A stretch of DNA of 64,000 nt from Phallusia mammillata (Eukaryota): NCBI GenBank assembly GCA_965637545.1, contig OZ281497.1, positions 27,218,001 to 27,282,000 on the forward strand, written 5' to 3'. The notes beneath the pieces were generated by a model. It was not told where the DNA came from. It made no database searches and was given only the letters and a program-made list of their open reading frames with translations. Below are positions 43,001-57,315 of this stretch, piece after piece (position 1 is the stretch's first letter; each line of letters starts with the position of its first letter). A program made the translations under genes and the position numbers.

Positions 43001-45299
43001 ATATTGACTTGTTCAATATGTCGTAAAAAAGGTTCACTTTAATCAATACGTCGTACAAAATTTACGTGCGATGCTGATAATGTAGTGTTACAATGTTTTT
43101 GTTGGCATAAAAGTTCTAATGAAAAATAAATATTGGTTTCAAACCAGTTTTTTTTAATCTTTCTCTATTGTTTTATTTCAATACGCACGGTCCTGTAGAA
43201 CTTCCACGCGCGTAACTTCATAGCACCACAACCCTGCGTGTCTAGCGTCACCACTGATGATATTATGGTTAGTACGTTAGCCTTGACATATTCTTACCTT
43301 GTAGCCTATAATTTGCTTTCTGAGCTTGTGTGCATTTTATATTTTCGCCTATTAAAACTTTCAGTGCTGTAAAAATATCATAATTCTGCTAAATATGTTT
43401 CTGTATTTTTTAATTGCTGTTATTTGGGCCTAAACTTGAACTTAGTGATAAACGATTTCGATACCGTAACTGTGTTTAATTCTTGTATTTTTGACAATTT
43501 CGTTATTTTTGACAATTTTTGTAAAGACTTTTCATTATTAGAGAGTCATGCTCTTCTATACATAGTTGTAATGTAACGCATATTTGCCTGTTTTCTATGC
43601 ATTTTTTACTTCTTATTAGTATCGTGAACATTATATCACATGATGTTCGATTTCCTTTTTTCTGATTTATTTGTTTAGTTTGAAAAATCTAAATCTAACT
43701 GAAAATCGTATCTAACTGAAATCATATATATGATTCTGTGGATGAAACATCAAATCTTAGATTTTTGCGTGGGGGGTTTGCTTTTGCTAAAACGTGACCG
43801 TTTAAACGCATACTGTATGTGCTTGAATTACAGTCATTTACTGGTAAAATATAAAACTGACCGATATAGTTTAGACATAACAGTACTTTTACGATTGATG
43901 GGATTTGGATTGCTTCTGTTGAAGTAATGACGCTTCAGCGTATATTTGAAAACAGTTGTCTTTACTGTCTTTTAGTATAAGTTGGGGACTTTCCCACCGA
44001 AGTTTTAAAAATTTAGCAAACAAGCGAGTTTTGATTTTTTATCCAAGAAGCAGGGTCAGTTCTTGTTACTGGTATAAGAATTAAAGCATCGTTGTGTGAC
44101 GATGTAATAACATGCAAGCACAATAAACCACACTAGTTGAACGTGTGACACGATTTCTCCGTCATCTTCTCACAAGAGGAAAGCTGCATCTTCACGAACT
44201 CCATTGTCCAGTACACCTTCCAAAATTACAAGAACCTTGTATAGCAATGAAGCATCAGTCAACACGGTGAGTGGTGTTTGTATTATAAAATTTATTTTCC
44301 TTAAATTGTGAAGTTTGGTGAAATTATTTCTAGTGGCAAAGTTATCATTGTTTACTTGCTGGCCAGATTGGAAAGAATGGTAAATTCTCCGCGCAATATT
44401 TTGGATTTTCCCTCTTAATCCGCGCAGACATAGGCTTTTGACGTGTAATCCGCGCAATAAAATCTTGTCCGAGCAACTTAGCACAGCTTGCATATAACTT
44501 CAATAAACTTTCTGTAAAATTTTATATTTATGTTGCACAATGAAGTTCTATGTCGTCACAAGCCTTATTTCGCGAATAATCCACGGAAATCAGTCAAGCG
44601 CATCGTTACTTACCGATCGTCAAGCTTGCAATGATATTTCTAATTCGCTAACGTAGTCGTTAAAAGTACATTTTATCAGTGTTTTTAGGACGTAGTTATG
44701 ACATTAAAGTGACTGTCGGCTAGATCAGTTACAGAAATAATATTTTCTGTTTGACAGTTACTTAAAAGCAGTTTGGCATTCTGAAATTACTTCAAAAGAA
44801 AGAAATGTAACAGCAAAAATTGTTTGAATCGTTATCAGTGTTGCCAGGTTGCGCGTTTGTCGCCAAATTGGGCTACTTTTGATATCGGGTTGCGGGGTTG
44901 CGCCTTTTTGAGCGGGTTTGCAAATGAAATTTTCTACCGTATGACGAGTAAAGGCCTGTTTACACTATGCTTAGCGACGCCTAACCTAACCTTACCTTGC
45001 GACCCCTTCCGTTTACACTGCGATTATCGGTGCGTACCTAAGCTTACTAAATAATATACTATACGTCTTTTTTTAGCTCACGGAAGCTGTCGATGACCAT
45101 AAATCACGACATAAATTTATTGTTACCTATTTTACATCGATAAAACTTTGTATCAATCTAAATTAAATCATATTTTGTTAGTAAACATGATTTTGCATCT
45201 TGGTAATCATGTAGGATTGTTCTGGATGTTGTTCCATAGATTCGAAATTTGAGAGGACTGTCTCAACTGCCAACAGAATCAGTCAGTAAATTAGAAAGT

Positions 45300-45340
45300 A
45301 GGAATATATATTTCGCCTAATAATGGCATCATCAGTTCCT
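45300..45340 (-). ncRNA. Type I minimal hammerhead ribozyme
   Basis: Reverse complement of AGGAA-CTGATGA-T-GCC(ATTATTA)GGC-GAAA-TATA-TA-TTCCT. Confidence 0.8.
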
Positions 45341-46062
45341 GAAAAACGCAAAATATCAAGAAATGTAAAACAAACACAATGTTCTAAGCAACTCAACAAC
45401 GCGAGTGTCGCCAAACACAAAATCGTTAAAAACCTTGCAAACCCAGCAACGCCTGGAAAACCTAAAGGTAACACCTGTGAAAACCTGGCAAGACCTACAC
45501 CATGGACAAATGTAAAGAGAAAAAGGGGGGTGGCAAAAAGAAACCAAGGCGCTCGCAACTAAAAGCCGATAAAACGATAAAAAAGATAAAAAGAAGATAA
45601 AATTAAAAAATTAAACTGCCGTAAACCGTACCCAAAGGCCGTGCAATTACTGACCACTGACACACACAAGTCACACACAAGTATGAAACACGATCACGAA
45701 AATTATCGAATCTTGGGCAGCAACATATTTTGAATATTAAGCGTTGCGCCAGTAAGTTTCAGCCATTTGGCTTCGCAGTGATTCAAACGATCAACATTGG
45801 GTTGCTCCACAAAGGTGACCGTAAAACATTCCGCGATATCTGGTCTCTTCATAAATATATCGTGGTGGTGGATGGCGAAGTGATGGCCCAGCGAGGCGTT
45901 GTCATTGTCACCGCTGGTTTTAAACGTGTTCCACACTGTTTTTAGTTTGTTTTAAGGTTTTTAACGATTTTGTGTTTGGCGACACTCGCGTTGTTGAGTT
46001 GCTTAGAACATTGTGTTTGTTTTACATTCTTGATATTTTGGTGTTGATCTATTGCGTTTTTC

Positions 46063-46103
46063 AGGAACTGATGATGCCATTATTAGGCGAAATATATATT
46101 CCT
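46063..46103 (+). ncRNA. Type I minimal hammerhead ribozyme
   Basis: AGGAA-CTGATGA-T-GCC(ATTATTA)GGC-GAAA-TATA-TA-TTCCT. Stem I AGGAA/TTCCT is perfect and stem III is the palindrome TATA. Confidence 0.82.
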
Positions 46104-47007
46104 ACTTTCTAATTTACTGACTGATTCTGTTGGCAGTTGAGACAGTCCTCTCAAATTTCGAGTCTTTTAACAATTTGCACAGTTATCGTCGGTATGCATG
46201 GCGGCTGTTGGAGGTTTAGATATTGCCCATCCACGACAATTTCTCTTGTTCCATAGATTTGTGACATATTTATCTTACTTTTATGTTTCTATAACATGTA
46301 GTCCCCTGTGATAGGGTAAATGTATATTTTAAATGCACTTAATTACAAAATTTAAACACAATAAAACACAACATGCAATCATAACCATGTAATAAATACT
46401 TAAATTGAAGCCAAATAACGTGTCATCATTTATTTTTGGCAAATGAACCAGCTTTTTTAAATCAGAAACCCGTACACAGCGATAACACAAACCGTTTGCG
46501 CAGGTTCAAGCAGCTTGATATGCAGAAAAACGCTCGGAAGGCGATCGCTCGCTCATTTCTACCAGACTTGAGCGCCCGAAATCAGTCAAGCGCGAAACCA
46601 GACAGAAAAAAGGAAACAAACAAACATACGCACGTTTGAGCGAGCGCGATACGCATAGTGTAAACGGGCCTTAATGATTGCATTATTATTGTGACGTCAA
46701 AAACGTTGTAAATTGAATTTTGACAAAAGAACTAATGAAACTGCCCAGAGCGTCGGAGATTTAACATCCAGCAGAGCAAAAGAATGCTTTTAGTCCATGC
46801 AATGCAACGTTCATTTCCAAACAAAGAAATTTAATAAACGTTTTCTGGTACCTTAGATCCGGGGTGTACTGCATGTAACTATATGGTCCAAAATTCAACT
46901 TTGTGCTTTCATGTACATATGTTGAAATATATGTACTGCCGTGCATGACCTGTGTATTAGTAAAATCTCCTATGTTACATATGTGACGTGTTAACTTGAC
47001 CAAAGTC

Positions 47008-47347
47008 TATATAAAACACAAGTTGTCCAACCTATTGTTACGCATTAAAAGCTAAATTGCTTTTTTTCATGAAAATTTTTTTTTTTTTCAAAAAATTTTG
47101 CCTCTTATTTTTCATGTAAACTTAAAATATTTGCATTCAGCGTGCGTAATCACGCTCAAATGTTAGAACCCAAAAGTTTTATTTTGATTTTGCCTATTAG
47201 TTTCGCGTTAAAGCTCACCAGTTTGTAAAAATCGGACAACTTATGTGTTTTTTTTCTATATACCTGCTGTATTAAGTTGGACACAAAATGGTGTCCATGG
47301 AGCTCTATCGTATAACAATGGGTTGGACTACTTGTGTTTTATATATA
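47008..47347. mobile_element. MITE with ~35-bp TIRs (TATATAAAACACAAGTTGTCCAACC...). One-ended copies in NLR introns at ~7814 and ~9983
   Basis: Inverted copy GGTTGGACTACTTGTGTTTTATATA at 47321-47345. Confidence 0.6.
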
Positions 47348-47795: not shown

Positions 47796-47961
47796 TAATC
47801 ACAAACATTACTGCCAAGGTAGAGGTGTATATAGAATACATCGTTCAGACGTTTCGACAATCTCTGTTGTCATCATCAGTGCATGTATTCTATATACACT
47901 ACTACCTTGGCAGTAATGTTTGTGATTAAACTACTTTTCAAGTCCGTGTATGGTGTTCCTA
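47796..47961 (-). mobile_element. Small Penelope-type foldback insertion with a hammerhead core in the loop (47848-47879, minus strand)
   Basis: 46-bp inverted arms at 47796-47841 and 47883-47928. The minus strand reads CTGATGA-T-GACAA(CAGAGA)TTGTC-GAAA-CG-TC. Flanking direct repeat TGTTTGTAAACTAAT (47785-47799, 47962-47976). Confidence 0.7.
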
Positions 47962-48799: not shown

Positions 48800-49052
48800 T
48801 GTGGTGAATGTTATTTCTATGTTGTGTTCCTGTTTACCTTGTTTCGTTTTTTCCTTTCCGTTACGTCCCGTTACTTCCTTCCGGTCATTAGTGTTTTGTC
48901 TCGTTAGCGGTAGGATGTCTAGTTTTCTCTTGCGTTTGGGCTTATTTGTTTTCTACATTTCCTGAGTCATTTATTGTTTGTGTTGCAGATACATTGCTGT
49001 ATTTTTACTTTAATAAAGCCAGAGTTAAATTAACTCCTCAATGGTCATCACA
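48800..49052 (+). repeat. 5' LTR (253 bp)
   Basis: Termini TGTGGTGA...TCATCACA, AATAAA at 49012-49017, 28 nt upstream of the gag ATG. Confidence 0.7.
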
Positions 49053-49080
49053 ATTTATTAAAGTAAATTAAATTTTCATC

Positions 49081-49869
49081 ATGGAAAAGCAGCAACTACC
49101 CAGACCGAAGGAACTCACAATAGACACAACGTATCCTGAAGCTTCAAAAATATTTACATATTGGCTAAGGACCGTTAAAGACTATATTGCATATCTTGAA
49201 GAAGGCAGAAGTGGTTCCTCTCCGGCCGTTAACAAAACTCGAGTAATTATAAGTTGTCTTTCACCTTCTGTGTACCCACTAGTGGAAGACGTCGAATCTT
49301 ATGACGATATTGTGGCAACTCTGCAAACCGCGTACGTAAAGAAAAAGAACAACGTGTATGCTCGTCATCTTTTTGTCAGCCGCCATCAACAAATGGATGA
49401 GGCCGTAACAGAATTCGCACAAGCTTTAAAATCTTTGGCTAAAGATTGCACTTTTAAAGTTGTATCGGCAAGTGAGTACAGGGATGAATTAACCAGAGAT
49501 GCATTTATAAATGGTCTCGTTTCGCCGTTTATACGACAACGAATTCTGGAAAAGGACGAGCTGACACTTCTCCAGACCATAGAACTTGCTGATAGCCTCG
49601 ATCGCACACAGAAGCAGGCGGCAAGCATGGGCAGAAGCCAGTTAGCTGTATCTGCTGTGCCTGGAGCTCAATCAGCTGAACAACACTCACCAGTTTCACG
49701 AGATGATAATTTAGTATCGTCAGAACTGTTGGCCGCATTCAAAAGTGGAAAAGCGCGCAAAAGATGTTATTTTTGTGGTGGTGGCTTGCACACCAGCCGA
49801 CGTTTATGTCCTGCACGCAATGCAATGTACATTGCAACAAACGTGGCCATTTTGCAAAGGCTTGTTTAA
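49081..49869 (+). CDS. gag: Gypsy Gag (zinc knuckles split by a frameshift)
   Basis: RDAFINGL...IRQRILE motif and CYFCGGGLH...CPARNA. The second knuckle CNKRGHFAKAC continues in the next frame. Confidence 0.85.
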   Translation: MEKQQLPRPKELTIDTTYPEASKIFTYWLRTVKDYIAYLEEGRSGSSPAVNKTRVIISCLSPSVYPLVEDVESYDDIVATLQTAYVKKKNNVYARHLFVSRHQQMDEAVTEFAQALKSLAKDCTFKVVSASEYRDELTRDAFINGLVSPFIRQRILEKDELTLLQTIELADSLDRTQKQAASMGRSQLAVSAVPGAQSAEQHSPVSRDDNLVSSELLAAFKSGKARKRCYFCGGGLHTSRRLCPARNAMYIATNVAILQRLV

Positions 49870-52800
49870 AGAAACCACCTGAGGCCGACAGCGCGGTATC
49901 AGTAGCTTCTGCTTCAGGCGCCCTTGCTTCTTTGGGCTTGTTTGCCGATAACGCGCACTGTTCATCAAGAATAATTGCGTCTGCCCCAAGCGGGCTCGGT
50001 CCCGCAGTTGCCAAAGGAAACGTTAAAGGCCAGATTGTTGACGTGTTGATAGACACAGGTGCATCAGAAAACTTTATCAACAAGAATGCTGCTGGGCGAT
50101 TGCAACTTACAGGACGCGGGGACTCGGAACAAATTTCGTTGGCAATGCACAAAATGGAGGCCAAAATTGAAGGAAGAACAGAAGCTAATATCACATTGTT
50201 GGGTCGAGAATATTCCAATTTGCAACTCGGTGTAATGCCAGATCTCTGCGCTGATGTAATCTTAGGACAGAATTTTCTTAAACTACATTCGGAAGTTGTT
50301 TTCCAGTACGGCGGACCTAAACAACCATTAAAAATACCTCTTGTTAAGACTCGCCCAGTGCTTAATGTTTCAGCTGCCAAACTGAAACCTTCGAGAATAT
50401 TTCAGTTCTTAAGGTACCTGCAGCTAACAAGGCCCATTAAAAAACTATTGCGTATAACTGAAAAACCATTTAACCGTTCCAGGCCAAATTCGGCATGATT
50501 GTTGCGGAGGTTGATATTAAACATCCATTAGATTTTGAGGACGTTTGCAAGTTTTGTTTTTGTAGGATAACAGTTTAAAAAAAATTAAAACTTGGGCCTT
50601 AATACAAACCTATGCTGTTAATAAAGCCCAACATTTTCATGTTTTTAAAAATAGTCTAGAAACCAATCAGACTCATTTGTACTTTGCTTCGGTCAAATAA
50701 AAGTTCAAACAAGCAACGTTATTAACTCATATTACACATATACTGTTAACTAAGACATATATAACTGTTAATCTGAAGGTACTAAAAAAGAATAAACGAC
50801 CCGTCGACATTTGACAACCTAAAATACTAAATGAAAGATTACTTCCACAAACATCTTATTTGGACTTTTTATCTCCCTAAGAAAGCAAAAAAGCAAATTT
50901 TGTGCATATCAGTCGCTTTTACTATAAAAGAAACTTGAGAAAATAACAAATTATCGTTGGGCCTTATTGCAAGCAATGGCTGATAAACAAAACCGTAATA
51001 AAATTTATTTGAAGTAATTCTTTTTTCCAGATCGGATAATGCTCCAATTAAACTAAAATGACCCCATTACTAATATATCTCAATAAGTTTTCATTTCGAC
51101 AACACAACCTTTTCATTTTTGCTACCAATTTTAACAAAAAATAATAAAAAGTTGAAAATAAACCCTTCTTAATTTGGATTGGTCATGATAACAATTACAT
51201 ATAACTTGCAGGTCCAAAACTTTGTAAATCATTTAAAGTACATATATATTTTAAAATTACATCTAAACGAAAGCAATTTTTCTGGCACATAAAAAAATAT
51301 TAGCAGTGGGCCTTATTACCTTCCGGGCCTACATACCTTCAGGTACCTTAGATCCAAGCTGCAAACCTATTGCCACAAAGTCACGCCGATATAGCTCTGA
51401 TGATCGCAATTTCATCGAATCGGAATTTAAACGTCTGCTGGCGGCAGGAATCGTAGAACCAGCAAAATCACCTTGGCGAGCCCAAGTGTTGGTAGTGGAA
51501 CAAAACGGAGGAAAGAAGCGTCTTTGCATCGACTATTCAGTAACTATTAATAAATTCACTTACCTAGATGCTTATCCTTTGCCTCGAATCGAAGAATTAG
51601 TGAACAAGATCGCAAATGACACTGTATACAGTTCATTGGATATGAAGTCCGCTTACCATCAAATTCCACTGTTTCCTGAAGAGAGACCAATGACCGCATT
51701 TGAAGCCAATGGGAGGCTGTATCAGTATCGCCGACTGCCCTTTGGTGTAACTAATGGAGTTGCAGCGTTTCAGCGAGTTATGGACGAATTTATACAGCGC
51801 CATAGATTAACTAAAGTGTATGCGTATCTTGATGACTTGACTGTAACTGGTGCTACCGAAAAAGAGCACAAAGAAAATCTTGACCGTTTGCTGGCGGCTG
51901 CCAGAACTGACGGTTTGACTTTTAATGAAGCAAAGTCAAAAATTGGTGTGAGAAGTTTGGACCTACTTGGATATCGTGTGTCCCACGGGGAAGTACGTCC
52001 TGATCCAAGCCGTTTGCAACCGTTACTCGATATACGCCCGCCGACTTCTACTAAAGAACTGAAAAGAGTGAATGGATTATTTGCATACTACGCGAAATGG
52101 ATTGTAGATTTCTCGGAAAAGGCTCTACCCCTATTGTCAGCTACTGAATTTCCTCTGCAAGGTAAGCCTCTTGAAGCTTTTAATGTCTTGAAATCTGATC
52201 TTGGAAAAGCAAGCTTAGGGGCAATTAAAGACAACGTTCCGTTTGCATCTGATTATGCCGTAGCAGCGATATTGTCACAAGATGGTCGACCCGTGGCGTG
52301 CATGTCCCGTACGCTCAACAAATGCGAGCGAAATTATCCTGCTGTTGAAAAAGAAGCTTCGGCTATCATCGAAGCCTCTCGTAAGTGGTCTCAATTTCTC
52401 AAAGGCAGGCATTTTACTTTAATCACCGATCAACGTTCCGTTAGCTTTATGTTCGATCAGAAAAATCGAGGAAAAATTAAGAATACAAAAATACTTGCAT
52501 GGCGCCTTGAACTTGGTCAGTTTAGTTACTTTATTCGTCACAGACCAGGAATTTAAAACGTTGCACCCGATGCCATGTCTCGCATTTGTGCTTCCGTCAC
52601 ATCACCTAAAACCTTACGTGTGATTCACGAACAGCTGGGTCATCCAGGTTTTGCCAGACTGTATCACTTTATCCGGACCCATAATCTTTCATATACAAGT
52701 GAAGAAGCGAAAAGCGTCGGGCAACAGTGTCAGACTTGCGCAGAAATCAAGCCTCGGTTCTTTCAACCTGTTCCCCAATCCCTAGTCCAATCAACTAAAC

Positions 52801-53300
52801 CGTGGGACCGATTGTCAATTGATTTCAAAGGACCTGTGAGAGGACCAAATCCATACTTACTTGTAGTTATTGATGAATATAGCAGATTCCCTTTTGTCTT
52901 TCCGTGTTCTGCGATGACATCTAAAACAGTAGTTAGTTGTCTAAATACTCTTTTCTGTCTCTTCGGTTTTCCTGCTTACATACATAGTGACCGAGGTCTG
53001 TCGTTTATGAGTCGCGAAGTTAAACAATTTCGTTCAGAACGAGGCATTGCAACAAGCAAATCTTCTCCATACCACCCAACAGGTAATAGCCAATGCGAAC
53101 GCGCAAATCAAACTATTTGGCGCACCATTAAACTTCTGTTACACAGCAAAGGTTTGTCAGAAGAAAAATGGGAAAGTGTTCTAAATGAAGCTCTCCATGC
53201 AATTAGGACATTAGTTTGTACAGCAGTGAATGAAACGCCATATGAAAGAATGTTTCGTTTCCGAAGAAGAGCTATGTTCGGAGCATCGAAAAACAACTAG
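49830..53300 (+). pseudogene. pol: Gypsy pol: protease, RT, RNase H, integrase (disrupted)
   Basis: Protease LIDTGA and DVILGQNF; RT LDMKSAYHQ, LPFG, YLDD; RNase H EKEA, TDQ; integrase HEQLGH..C..C, SIDF, SDRG, NSQCER. Confidence 0.92.
50412..51348 (-). mobile_element. TA-target MITE copy 2 inserted in Gypsy pol
   Basis: TA|AGGTACCTG...CAGGTACCT|TA. Removing the element plus one TA restores in-frame F-L-D-P-S-C-K-P (TTC TTA GAT CCA). Confidence 0.9.
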
Positions 53301-55154
53301 TATTTTTGTTTAACATTACACCAGTTGAACGACATATTTGTTAAATATGCAACCTGGTGGACGAAAACACCTGTTCAGCATTTTCAACAAAAAATATGTT
53401 ATAACAGAGTTTTATTGTTTCTTTTCTGCAGCCAGATCCACATAATGAGCATGCAAAGTGATCTCTTGTTTATAAAGAAGCACATAATGGAGAAGGTATC
53501 ACAAAACTTTGTAGACCAGGGGTGTGCTACTTTCATTACTGATAGCCAAAATGCAATTAACATGATTAGATCATAGGCCACATCCTGAAGTAACTTGCTT
53601 TTGTGTTCACCAACCATTCATGCATTTCAATAAGTTACTAACAGAAGCATCTATTACCGAAATAGTTTAGTGGGCTGCATTTGGTTTGCAGGTTGCTCAC
53701 AACCTGCTCTAGACATTTCAACAATGAAAACTACATTTTTTTATTCACAACAGAATCTGAAAAGCTGAACCAAAGTCTTGAACTGTTTGATGACAGTAAT
53801 GATGATTTTGATGATTTTTTATCTTCACTTCCTGATTCTGTAATGAATGGAAGCCAACCATTGCCAGGCCGAGTAAAAATAGTCTTTGTTTTGTGTTTTA
53901 AATAGTGTTTACTTCTTTTTGCACCAAGCCTAATTGTGTCAAGTGTAGTGTGTAGAGCACGCATGTCAAACTTAAACAACTTTGAGGGCCAAAAGCAAGC
54001 TTTTAAGTAAGTTGAGGGCTGCGCTATCGAAACATTTGTTACAATGTAACATCACAACAACAAAATACGTGATTTCAAAGTAAAATGTTCATTATTATCA
54101 TTACCTACATTAAAAAACAATATTGTAATAAATACGAAAGACATATATAGAGAGTAGCAGAGTGAAAGAACCAACTGTGCTTTATTGCTTTGTGTGAAAA
54201 CAATGGCATACAATGATGCAGCAATTGCATCCCTGATTCTAAACATGTGCCATTTCGATCATCCTATTAAAACAATGCATGTACCACTAATAGAGAATGA
54301 TTGTATCATTTAAACTCACTGGGCTGACAGGGTATTCTGCCAAAGTTAAACACATAACTTCTAAAAGTTACTTTGCAGGCCTGCATAAACACTCTTGGAG
54401 GCCTGTAACGGGCTGTGTGTTTGACACATCTGGTTTAGAATATGCTCCAAAGAAAAGTGTATGATCAAAAGTATTAGTTTAGCCTGATTTTGTCATTATG
54501 TTGCAGTTTAAAGCAAGTGAATTGCCTGATCATGTATTGGAAAACATTTTCTCATGTTTGCCGATCCGAGATATGTTACTGTCCTGTTCGCTTGTTTGTC
54601 ACAGATGGAAAAATATCATCATGGATGAAAAGGTAATTGAATAACCAAATGATAAAATTAATGTAAAAATGTAAAATAAAAACTTGAGCTTGAAAATGAT
54701 TTACCTTAGTTTATCATCTTGAAAACAAACTTACAAAAATTATGAGTTGATTGCTGACTGAGCAATTTGTTCAGTTTATGTTGTGGAAAAAGTTTTATCA
54801 CAAAGTTCGTGATAATGATCAAGAGGCAATAAGTCACATTGAGGGTTTGCTGAAGTCAACTGATTTGCTGATGGAAAGCACAGATAATGATCCTCTTGTG
54901 GCATATCGTATTGGAAATATTATCCGGTGTCTACAAAATATAAATTTAAAAATTTATTGTTTTTACTTTTTGAGGAATTACACAAGTCAACAAAAAATAC
55001 TGAAACCATCTATAGTCACTGAAAAACTTTTGTCACCTAAGGAATCTCCTGCAGACAATAGAATGTAGAAAAGAAAGATTCTTGCTTCTTATCAGTAGTA
55101 TATTTCGACTGTTTCATGAAGAACAGGTACAAAGCATAAATCATTTCTTTAAAA

Positions 55155-55201
55155 ACAGAAATATATATTTCGCCTTGAATACAGGCATCATCAGTTTCTG
55201 T
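55155..55201 (-). ncRNA. Type I minimal hammerhead ribozyme
   Basis: Minus strand ACAGAAA-CTGATGA-T-GCC(TGTATTCAA)GGC-GAAA-TATA-TA-TTTCTGT with a perfect 7-bp stem I. Confidence 0.82.
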
Positions 55202-55348
55202 AAAAAAGCAGCAATGTTAAGAAAATGAATCCATTGCATTCCAATCTCCCACAACGCAGGAACTTTTGGCCAACAGTCTTATTTCTTCAAAAAATTGAAA
55301 ATGTATGCCACAAGACTGAAAAAAAGCAGAGAAGCAATCTGCTTTTTT

Positions 55349-55395
55349 ACACAAACTGATGATGCCTGTATTCAAGGCGAAATATATATTTCTGT
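55349..55395 (+). ncRNA. Type I minimal hammerhead ribozyme
   Basis: ACACAAA-CTGATGA-T-GCC(TGTATTCAA)GGC-GAAA-TATA-TA-TTTCTGT, with one stem I mismatch. Confidence 0.78.
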
Positions 55396-57315
55396 TTTTA
55401 AAGAAATGATTTATGCTTTGTACCTGTTCTTCATGAAACAGTCTAAATATACCATCTATAGTCAATTGTAATTAAACAAGTGTATGTATGTCATTCAATT
55501 AGGGTAAAAACTGCTTTGTGTTGGTTGACATAACTGATTTAGCATTGTTGTTTTGTGTGTTTTATAGATTTGCAAGAGAAACATCCATTAGGGATGTTTG
55601 ATAGTGATTTAATGAAGGGATTGTTCCGATCATTGAACAAACATCCATTGTACAAACTTTTCCATGACTGTGACTAACAGAAGAGTTCTGTTATTTAGTA
55701 ACAATGTATGTAGAATCTAACACCATTTTGGTCATGGTGTGCTGTTTAAAATAAAGCATGAAAACCTTAATTTAAAAACATATTCTGTATTAAGTTAGTT
55801 TGAAGAAATTTATTTGTTTCAGTTGAAGAATGACTATGATGTCTGGGTTATTTGTACCACAATCTTGCTTCTTTCACCAGATGAAAATCATATGCAACGT
55901 TTAAAAAACAAGTTATGTTGCTTCAAACCTTTACCCATGTGATGGATTTCCTTTACATGTTGTCACTATTAATGTGGATGCTACATCGACATCAACTGAT
56001 GAGTCAAGAGTAAGTTTCTAATTTGAGTTTAACAGTTGAACAAACTACTGACTTCCCAGACTTTGCTTTTTGACCCAACTTTCTTGCCCTTCAGAAGTAC
56101 ATAAATAAATAAGATAACACAATAGATTAGTGACAGGTCTTATGGTTCTAGCTAATTTGATTTAGGTAATAAAAGGTCAAATTTGCCAAGCTTTCACTTG
56201 GAGTAAACTGAAATATACAAACCTTATTATGAAAAGATGGTATAAGTTTTTTTAGTTTTAGATGGTAATTTGTTCATCTGTAAAAGTCCAGAAACTGATG
56301 ACAAGGAACTTCAGTTTTCAAGATCAGTTTTTAAAGGATTTTAACCACCAGTTGATCTCATAGATTGCTAATGAATTAAGGCTTATGTCATTGGTTGTTT
56401 TGACTTTGAAAGAATTGCTTTCCTGACCCAACCTTGCCTACACCAACTTGCTTTATTTGTTTCTGTAGATATCATTACAGACTTTACGACTTTACTGCTC
56501 AATTTCCCTCCTCTAAAACACTGTAACACCACTGCCAGTGTGGTAACTAAAAACTTTTGATTAAAATTGTTACTGTTTAAAGCTGTATAACTTTTTTAAT
56601 ATATACCAAATATTCAGTCAATTAAAAGAGTCCTGCAACTTCAACTGGACCCACGGCAAGCAAAGAGTCATAGGTCATGAGTTCAAACCAAGTCAACTGG
56701 TGTGAGTGATGGCTTATGCTGAATCTGAGAAGATAAGCACATCATGTAAATGCTAATTTACAAAAACGATTTCTCTACACACTTTTAAGCAGGTAAATCT
56801 TATTTGTGGTTTGTATCAGACAAATTAAGGTCCAATTTTTCTAAATTATTTAACATTTGTTTATTGATTTTTAGGGTCAATTTTTGATCTTGGTAAGGAG
56901 GCATGTTTTAAATATTGTAATAAACTGCGCAACTTTGCACAGTCTTTTTTATATTGCTTTATTATATTTATGCTTCTAGAAAACTGTTTACTTAAAAAAC
57001 ATTTTTTTCTTTAAATGCTTACACTGTATTGCAAATTGACATAACTACGAGTAACTTATCCAGTCATTTGTGCCCCAGGTTTCACTGTAAAATGTCACCT
57101 TGTTGCATTGCATAACGTGATATGCGTGAAAAACTGGGCATGGTCTTGATGTTCAAAAAAACCTTGGTATGGAAGTTTGTGAGGCGACCGATGCAGATGA
57201 ATGTGGTTGCAGCTCAGAGAGTCAATTATGTTGGATGCCGGTCTTCTGTACGACATTTACATTCTTACGAAATCCAAGAAAAGGAATGGTAAGTTTTTTG
57301 TACTTTCTTACCAAC

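Follow-up and report, generated by a model that had tools for sequence, protein, structure and literature searches.

Self-priming of reverse transcription has been shown for the retrotransposon Tf1 and, in the papers covered, is tied to its chromovirus kin; the one further case there, in plant Copia elements, is predicted. Tf1 RNA pairs with the primer site through its first 11 bases and is cut by RNase H between bases 11 and 12 (PMC7175516). The fold has been described as a three-duplex pretzel with site-adjacent strands (PMC10085805), and hairpin priming has been proposed to be ancestral (PMC3601003). For the plant Copia lineage TAR, self-priming is predicted from a complement of at least 10 bp starting 0–5 bp after the 5′ LTR (PMC6317226). 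In the literature covered, mostly open-access main texts, self-priming is reported for Tf1/sushi, Tcn1 and plant Copia TAR, and for no member of the clade analysed here.

We have analysed a Ty3/Gypsy element, together with the clade to which it belongs, in a stretch of 64,000 nucleotides from Phallusia mammillata (the window, meaning the whole stretch; positions refer to it unless stated otherwise). The clade resembles Tf1, Tf2 and Tj1 of the Tf1/sushi group in its Gypsy domain order, a site complementary to the 5′ LTR, the lack of a tRNA site and helices flanking the duplex. It differs from Tf1/sushi in having no chromodomain, a Mag-like Gag and a separate, long-stemmed pol clade, and from Tf1 in that the duplex has 10–18 nt and ends in WTAAA^RCY (usually with a poly(A) hexamer; the caret marks the predicted cut), with a predicted second helix right after the arm. 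Like the TAR lineage of Ty1/copia (Houba, Osr-1), the window element has a complement of at least 10 bp that begins within 0–5 bp of the 5′ LTR; TAR elements, however, are Copia elements of plants, and the Tcn1 chromoviruses belong with Tf1/sushi. As far as its published description goes, TAR shows that a separate origin of self-priming has a precedent.

Results

The element is a broken copy of a Ty3/Gypsy retrotransposon spanning positions 48800–53289, in which the 5′ LTR, gag, protease, a 935-bp foreign insertion, RT-RNase H and a truncated integrase follow each other without a 3′ LTR. Pfam domains occur in the order Gag-protease-RT-RNase H-integrase, LTR pairs and a target duplication are found in other copies, and the best match in the structural database (PDB) is Ty3 RT. 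Contigs carrying an empty allele join 48798 to about 53289; the insertion is thus polymorphic, the surrounding stretch is unbroken in those runs, and the 3′ end of the element is deleted. The features are the following:

48800..49052 (+): 5′ LTR, 253 bp, TG...CA; same end base in 3′ and solo copies, 5-bp target duplications
48910..48988 (+): intron-like stretch within the LTR, from a GTAGGA donor at 48910 to an acceptor-like TTGCAG whose last base is 48988
49004..49017 (+): LTR arm, the self-primer predicted from the sequence; final AATAAA at 49012–49017
49018..49021 (+): GCCA, the clade motif RCY right 3′ of the predicted cut; 5′ strand of the second helix
49022..49036 (+): inner hairpin GAGTTAA/TTAACTC, 6 bp predicted, centre varying between copies
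49042..49045 (+): TGGT, 3′ strand of the second helix
49053 (+): single-base spacer from LTR end to primer site; register identical in 16 families and in a blind scan
49054..49067 (+): putative primer-binding site, complement of the LTR arm, no TGG
49081..49869 (+): gag, starting 13 nt 3′ of the primer site; frameshift near the zinc knuckle
49710..50411 (+): end of gag and protease, in a different frame
50412..51346 (no strand assigned): foreign insertion, 935 bp, short terminal inverted repeats
51347..52556 (+): reverse transcriptase and RNase H, terminating in a stop
52557..53289 (+): integrase, truncated; neither polypurine tract nor 3′ LTR remains

The 935-bp insertion at 50412–51346 is AT-rich and MITE-like, with inverted ends of the AGGTACCTG type and a TA duplication. 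Long inverted-repeat MITE-like elements are also present at 45238–46165, 47008–47345, 47796–47928 and 55098–55452 of the window, two of them with related ends, and a frame at 54500–54640 (+) resembles an F-box motif by eye.

The LTR was delimited as 48800–49052 because its 3′ and solo copies part ways directly after CATCACA, and because of the LTR pairs and 5-bp duplications of the full copies: the LTR pairs are 98.0–99.2% alike in three full copies, two of which have perfect 5-bp duplications. No TGG follows the LTR end at 49052, where CA is succeeded by ATTT, and none is found at the LTR junction of any clade element examined; an earlier note on this DNA had rightly pointed to the missing TGG in describing a Gypsy element without a tRNA primer site. 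After the CA comes one A and then TTTATTAAAGTAAA (49054–49067), the perfect complement of TTTACTTTAATAAA at 49004–49017. This exact 14-nt complementarity, claimed in the same note, is confirmed: the 14-mer occurs at just these two sites of the window (two matches in 0 of 100 shuffles), and the longest match between primer site and LTR, 14 nt, compares with a mean of 5.4 and a maximum of 10 nt for 1000 shuffled LTRs (p = 0.001). The best match of the site to a tRNA is 5 nt, in a comparison that covered about six tRNA types from this genome and also bears on half-tRNA priming, in which, as in some Copia elements, the site matches an internal stretch of the tRNA; the Rfam tRNA search gave 63 matches, nearly all of them from one Lys/Glu array. 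In this genome tRNAs form long tandem arrays (Lys/Glu, Ser-type and a third type) at G000:C1:30.95-31.02 Mb, C4:7.79-7.88 Mb and C8:13.65-13.68 Mb, and a Mag-like element, L116, sits inside the Lys/Glu array.

The 5′ end of the element has 35 matches in the genome. Full 14/14 pairing is retained in 8 of the 11 family loci that have the primer site; the remaining three carry one G-U change or, in two duplicated copies of one insertion, 1–2 mismatches; in these three loci, 1–2 changes of the site stand without a matching change of the partner. Twelve of the 14 arm/site pairs are A-T and the copy in the window is broken, as would suit an AT-rich inverted repeat arisen by chance in one dead copy. 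This reading has a negligible probability and is refuted by conservation, given the shuffling result above, the retention of all 14 pairs in 8 of 11 loci and the fact that arms of differing sequence occupy this one place in 16 families.

Searching the same genome with Gag gave 77 matches, and 40 stretches were retrieved. A sister family, whose Gag is 54% and whose RT is about 65% identical to that of the element's family, has a 274-bp LTR followed by one A and by a distinct 13-nt site matching its own LTR. Its copies differ at arm position −6, where the pair is C-G, T-A or G-C. Furthermore, in sister copy L201 both partners at −12 are changed, among only 8 differences in 342 nt (about 0.006 by chance); such instant compensation is explained if the primer is copied into the site.

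Rearranged copies were observed as well. One sister-family copy (L098, L202–L204, L224–L226), duplicated three times, is a recombinant whose 5′ and 3′ LTRs come from different subfamilies (87% alike, with different arm letters). Another insertion, L263 769–5424 (G000:C1:22218269-22222923), consists of two inverted partial copies of the window element's family, its right end being a 16-nt piece of the LTR 3′ end; the insertion as a whole is flanked by one 5-bp duplication and resembles a reverse transcript that mis-jumped and was integrated nonetheless.

The comparison was extended with a metagenome scan, from which 67 loci were kept; 29 of them contain the LTR-gag junction, and the other 38, without it, were left out. 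Overall, 28 elements from the same genome and the metagenome fall into 16 families at 70% Gag identity. Watson-Crick pairs at arm positions −1 to −12 are present in 14–16 of the 16 families. At the variable positions −5 to −13, 136 of 144 positions are paired with their own partner, as compared to 82.9 with permuted partners; this count leans high because the arms were chosen by maximising pairs across 13 positions. Three loci were shifted by one base to fit the common register. The count for positions −14 to −16 is free of the bias from arm choice: 33 of 48 are paired as compared to 20.1 after permutation, and beyond −16 pairing is at chance level. C at arm −10 is found only in the family of the window element, and its primer site has the matching G.

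The register of the duplex is fixed. The primer site begins one base after the LTR CA across the 16 families. When the metagenome loci were scanned blindly with nothing but the rule "CA, one base, 12 of 13 pairs", 24 of the 29 that include the gag-side junction gave a hit there, the other five showing weaker pairing or an altered CA. A perfect match of 10–17 nt was found in 14 of the 17 clade elements with refined boundaries (less than 10 nt in L099, L136 and L191); the 16 elements for which boundary refinement failed are left out of these counts. As for the controls, tRNA-type elements from the same genome match their LTR over only 4–5 nt in 15 of 15 cases, and nine further Gypsy elements (the refinable ones of 20 retrieved) have a TGG and a 4–8 nt LTR match. 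Compensatory changes between the two arms, by which the earlier note had proposed to judge its reading, are found both across the 16 families and within the sister family. Judged from these sequences, the self-match is a trait of the whole clade and no one-off.

Covariation alone cannot separate priming from another use of the duplex. The end of an LTR is fixed by the base where minus-strand synthesis starts, so that a duplex ending one base from the CA in family after family marks the primer. One alternative is that the duplex does no more than conceal the 5′ LTR's poly(A) signal, while a tRNA fragment or another host RNA serves as primer. Such a reading could draw on the arms themselves, which have a loose common motif (G at −10 in 15 of the 16 families, and TAAA) and whose last bases are AATAAA or ATTAAA in 11 of the 16, and on the few tRNA types of this genome in the comparison. 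We hold it to be very improbable, since masking requires no exact one-base register at the LTR end, the sites vary between and within families and track their own LTR rather than a fixed host RNA, the best match to the compared tRNAs is 5 nt and the AATAAA of the sister family is in the loop, outside the duplex. The position of the sister-family hexamer also limits the suggestion that the pairing would mask the AATAAA of the 5′ LTR, which agrees with the arm-final hexamer of the 11 families and does not extend to the sister family.

The arm ends in a conserved WTAAA^RCY, with WTAAA in most families and then R-C-Y. A helix of at least 4 bp beginning at the first base after the arm is found in 12 of the 16 families, as compared to 3.9 expected (maximum 10 in 2000 shuffles); in the window element it is predicted to pair 49018–49021 (GCCA) with 49042–49045 (TGGT). 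RNA 49004–49083 has a folding z of −5.6. The inner repeat GAGTTAA/TTAACTC (49022–49036), which the earlier note had pointed out, is indeed present, but only 6 bp are predicted for it because its arms are 1 nt apart, and its centre is variable. It was rejected as the conserved inner helix, a role that belongs to GCCA/TGGT. The three-duplex pretzel of Tf1 is not predicted by the folding program, which cannot draw pseudoknots.

The 5′ arm lies 24–68 nt from the site, and the predicted folding probability is near 1 in most elements. This proximity matters for an alternative in which the same arm is the primer but comes from elsewhere, namely from the 3′ LTR of the genomic RNA, a second RNA of the particle or short LTR transcripts. 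The arm is present in every LTR, so that the DNA sequence cannot tell its copies apart and covariation would look identical with a primer from another arm copy; moreover, the poly(A) hexamer that ends the arm in 11 of 16 families is near the RNA 3′ end. We nevertheless consider this source unlikely, because the 5′ copy is so close to the site and is predicted to fold there, a cut in the 3′ copy would destroy the repeat needed for strand transfer, and the 5′ copy is the one used by Tf1 (PMC7175516).

Contigs of three presumed-RNA runs (two studies) follow an LTR copy to 48909, leave it exactly at GTAGGA and join it to unrelated exon-like sequence. These contigs start in host sequence and hence reveal a donor that can be used, but not the element's own start. 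The donor at 48910 seems to be used, and an LTR elsewhere seems to lend its splice donor to a host transcript. An acceptor-like site ending at 48988 was called by a simple rule, with no junction between it and the donor observed. Acceptor-like sites are found 26–43 nt before the arm end in the window family, the sister family and some others (4 of 16 representatives by the rule), further upstream in L142 and L174, and before the arm throughout the RT subclade of the element; L174 and L176 also have good donors upstream. As the donor at 48910 seems used and acceptor-like sites precede the arm, the RNA may begin well upstream, and leader trans-splicing is a possible use of these sites if the hosts are ascidians. 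Precise genomic loss of 48910–48988 was seen in none of 30 aligned loci, and no conserved TATA-like column was found upstream of the arm in the 16 families. The contigs of four runs have no cover over about 48966–49087; contigs cannot show starts and carry no weight either way. A/T at −11 and G at −10 pointed to a primer of 11 nt beginning at an initiator-like A (49007), a reading that was not adopted because pairing and compensatory change reach −12 and beyond. Perfect runs of 10–18 nt followed by chance-level pairing would agree with an RNA that starts close to where each run ends, here at about 49004, and we lean slightly towards a replicating RNA that starts at about 49003–49007.

The placement of the clade was analysed with Gag and with pol. 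Its Gag profile scores 55–85 bits on five of six tRNA-primed Mag-like elements (12.7 on the sixth) and at most 3.4 on chromodomain elements, which bears out the view that this Gag is unlike that of Tf1/sushi. Pfam finds no chromodomain at the integrase end of 8 of 8 clade proteins (L091 stops short, L094 extends as far as the 3′ LTR) and detects one in L283 and L286. The Mag-like Gypsy elements of the same genome have the closest Gag outside the clade and form the nearest pol group; like the clade, they have a 5-bp duplication, a short LTR and one long frame, while they differ in their TGG-type sites, the absence of a self-match and an RT that is about 28–37% identical. One of their TGG site types corresponds to the 3′ end of tRNA-Ser(GCT) from this genome, and the other we take to be that of tRNA-Leu. 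The name Mag for these tRNA-primed elements is likewise provisional.

Two further groups of Gypsy elements were encountered. In L247, L258 and L259 the integrase is ahead of RT (Gmr1 order), L247 having also a SCAN domain. L279–L293 are eukaryotic Gypsy elements in bacterial genome bins, two of them with chromodomains, and are likely contamination.

In every tree a long branch with a support of 100 sets the clade apart, and in the RT-RH-IN tree the clade groups with the Mag-like elements (95 SH-aLRT). With RT-RH-IN, a grouping of the clade with a fish/fungal chromovirus pair (Astyanax/Penicillium stand-ins, Tf1 and sushi being absent) is rejected (p-AU 0.0008), whereas a sister position to the core chromoviruses is not (p 0.22). 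RT-RH alone rejects neither chromovirus grouping (p 0.08 for the fish/fungal pair and 0.27), and the mixture-model tree leaves the sister group of the clade unplaced. These trees are quick searches in which the stem of the clade is long and Tf1, sushi and a named Mag reference are not included. Short or stop-rich pieces and near-copies were dropped, 26 rows in the first tree and 7 more in the mixture-model tree; 16 of 52 rows were dropped in the RT-RH tree and 19 in the RT-RH-IN tree, outgroup included. The RT-RH-IN phylogeny thus separates the clade from the fish/fungal pair and leaves core-chromovirus sisterhood standing.

Related proteins with a named source belong to Ciona, shrimps, Trichuris, Acropora, Actinostola, a leafhopper and a sea spider, those of Ciona being the nearest; this comparison covers proteins only. 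No relatives were found in viral contigs, and the Atlas search gave only generic RT clusters. Cigr-1 of Ciona intestinalis, whose LTR and reading-frame sizes are presumably similar to those of the element, is a possible relative. A small Cigr-1 clade is described, also in molluscs, in a paper whose text does not mention primer sites (PMC6238403).

Discussion

The absence of TGG, the fixed one-base register and the covariation across 16 families and within one family support the self-priming that the earlier note proposed, and we think it likely that elements of this clade prime reverse transcription with their own RNA and not with a tRNA. The primer site would pair with the LTR arm of the element's own RNA, and, if Tf1 is a guide, this RNA would be cut where the arm ends on its 3′ side (after 49016 or 49017), the element's RNase H being the probable nuclease. 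The cut would fall after the AAA of the arm, at the junction of two helices; the freed 3′ end would then be extended by about 36 nt back to the cut, and strand transfer would make use of the stretch between the cut and the poly(A) site. A poly(A) hexamer usually closes the arm, so that the same duplex would also conceal this signal in the 5′ LTR.

By its sequence features the clade likely works like Tf1, yet it is no member of Tf1/sushi. The suggestion of an independent origin is favoured by the Mag-like Gag and the pol placement, although sisterhood with the core chromoviruses remains compatible with the data. On balance, the trait probably arose apart from Tf1/sushi, beside tRNA-primed Mag-like elements. 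If hairpin priming is ancestral, as has been proposed (PMC3601003), self-priming in the clade is possibly a retained ancestral habit. Taking the separate origin further, we incline, if only by a little, to a scenario in which a widespread animal Gypsy clade (of ascidians, cnidarians, arthropods and nematodes, by its named relatives) independently left tRNA priming from Mag-like ancestors. A segment holding the poly(A) signal would have become the primer, cut at a conserved UAAA^RC between two stacked helices, and one duplex would both prime copying and silence the 5′ poly(A) signal; in the subclade of the element, a spliced or trans-spliced leader may even supply the primer.

WTAAA^RCY together with the stacked helix provides an exact candidate cut site. 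Annotation tools that demand a tRNA site would miss or down-rank such elements. Silencing by 3′ tRNA fragments is described as targeting elements with tRNA sites (PMC7472051), and elements without such a site would escape it. The tRNA-primed and the self-primed group, if sisters, let one ask what RT and RNase H must change. Finally, a separate origin, if true, would be a second one of self-priming in Gypsy elements, in a broad animal clade, and the switch from tRNA to self-primer would be repeatable.
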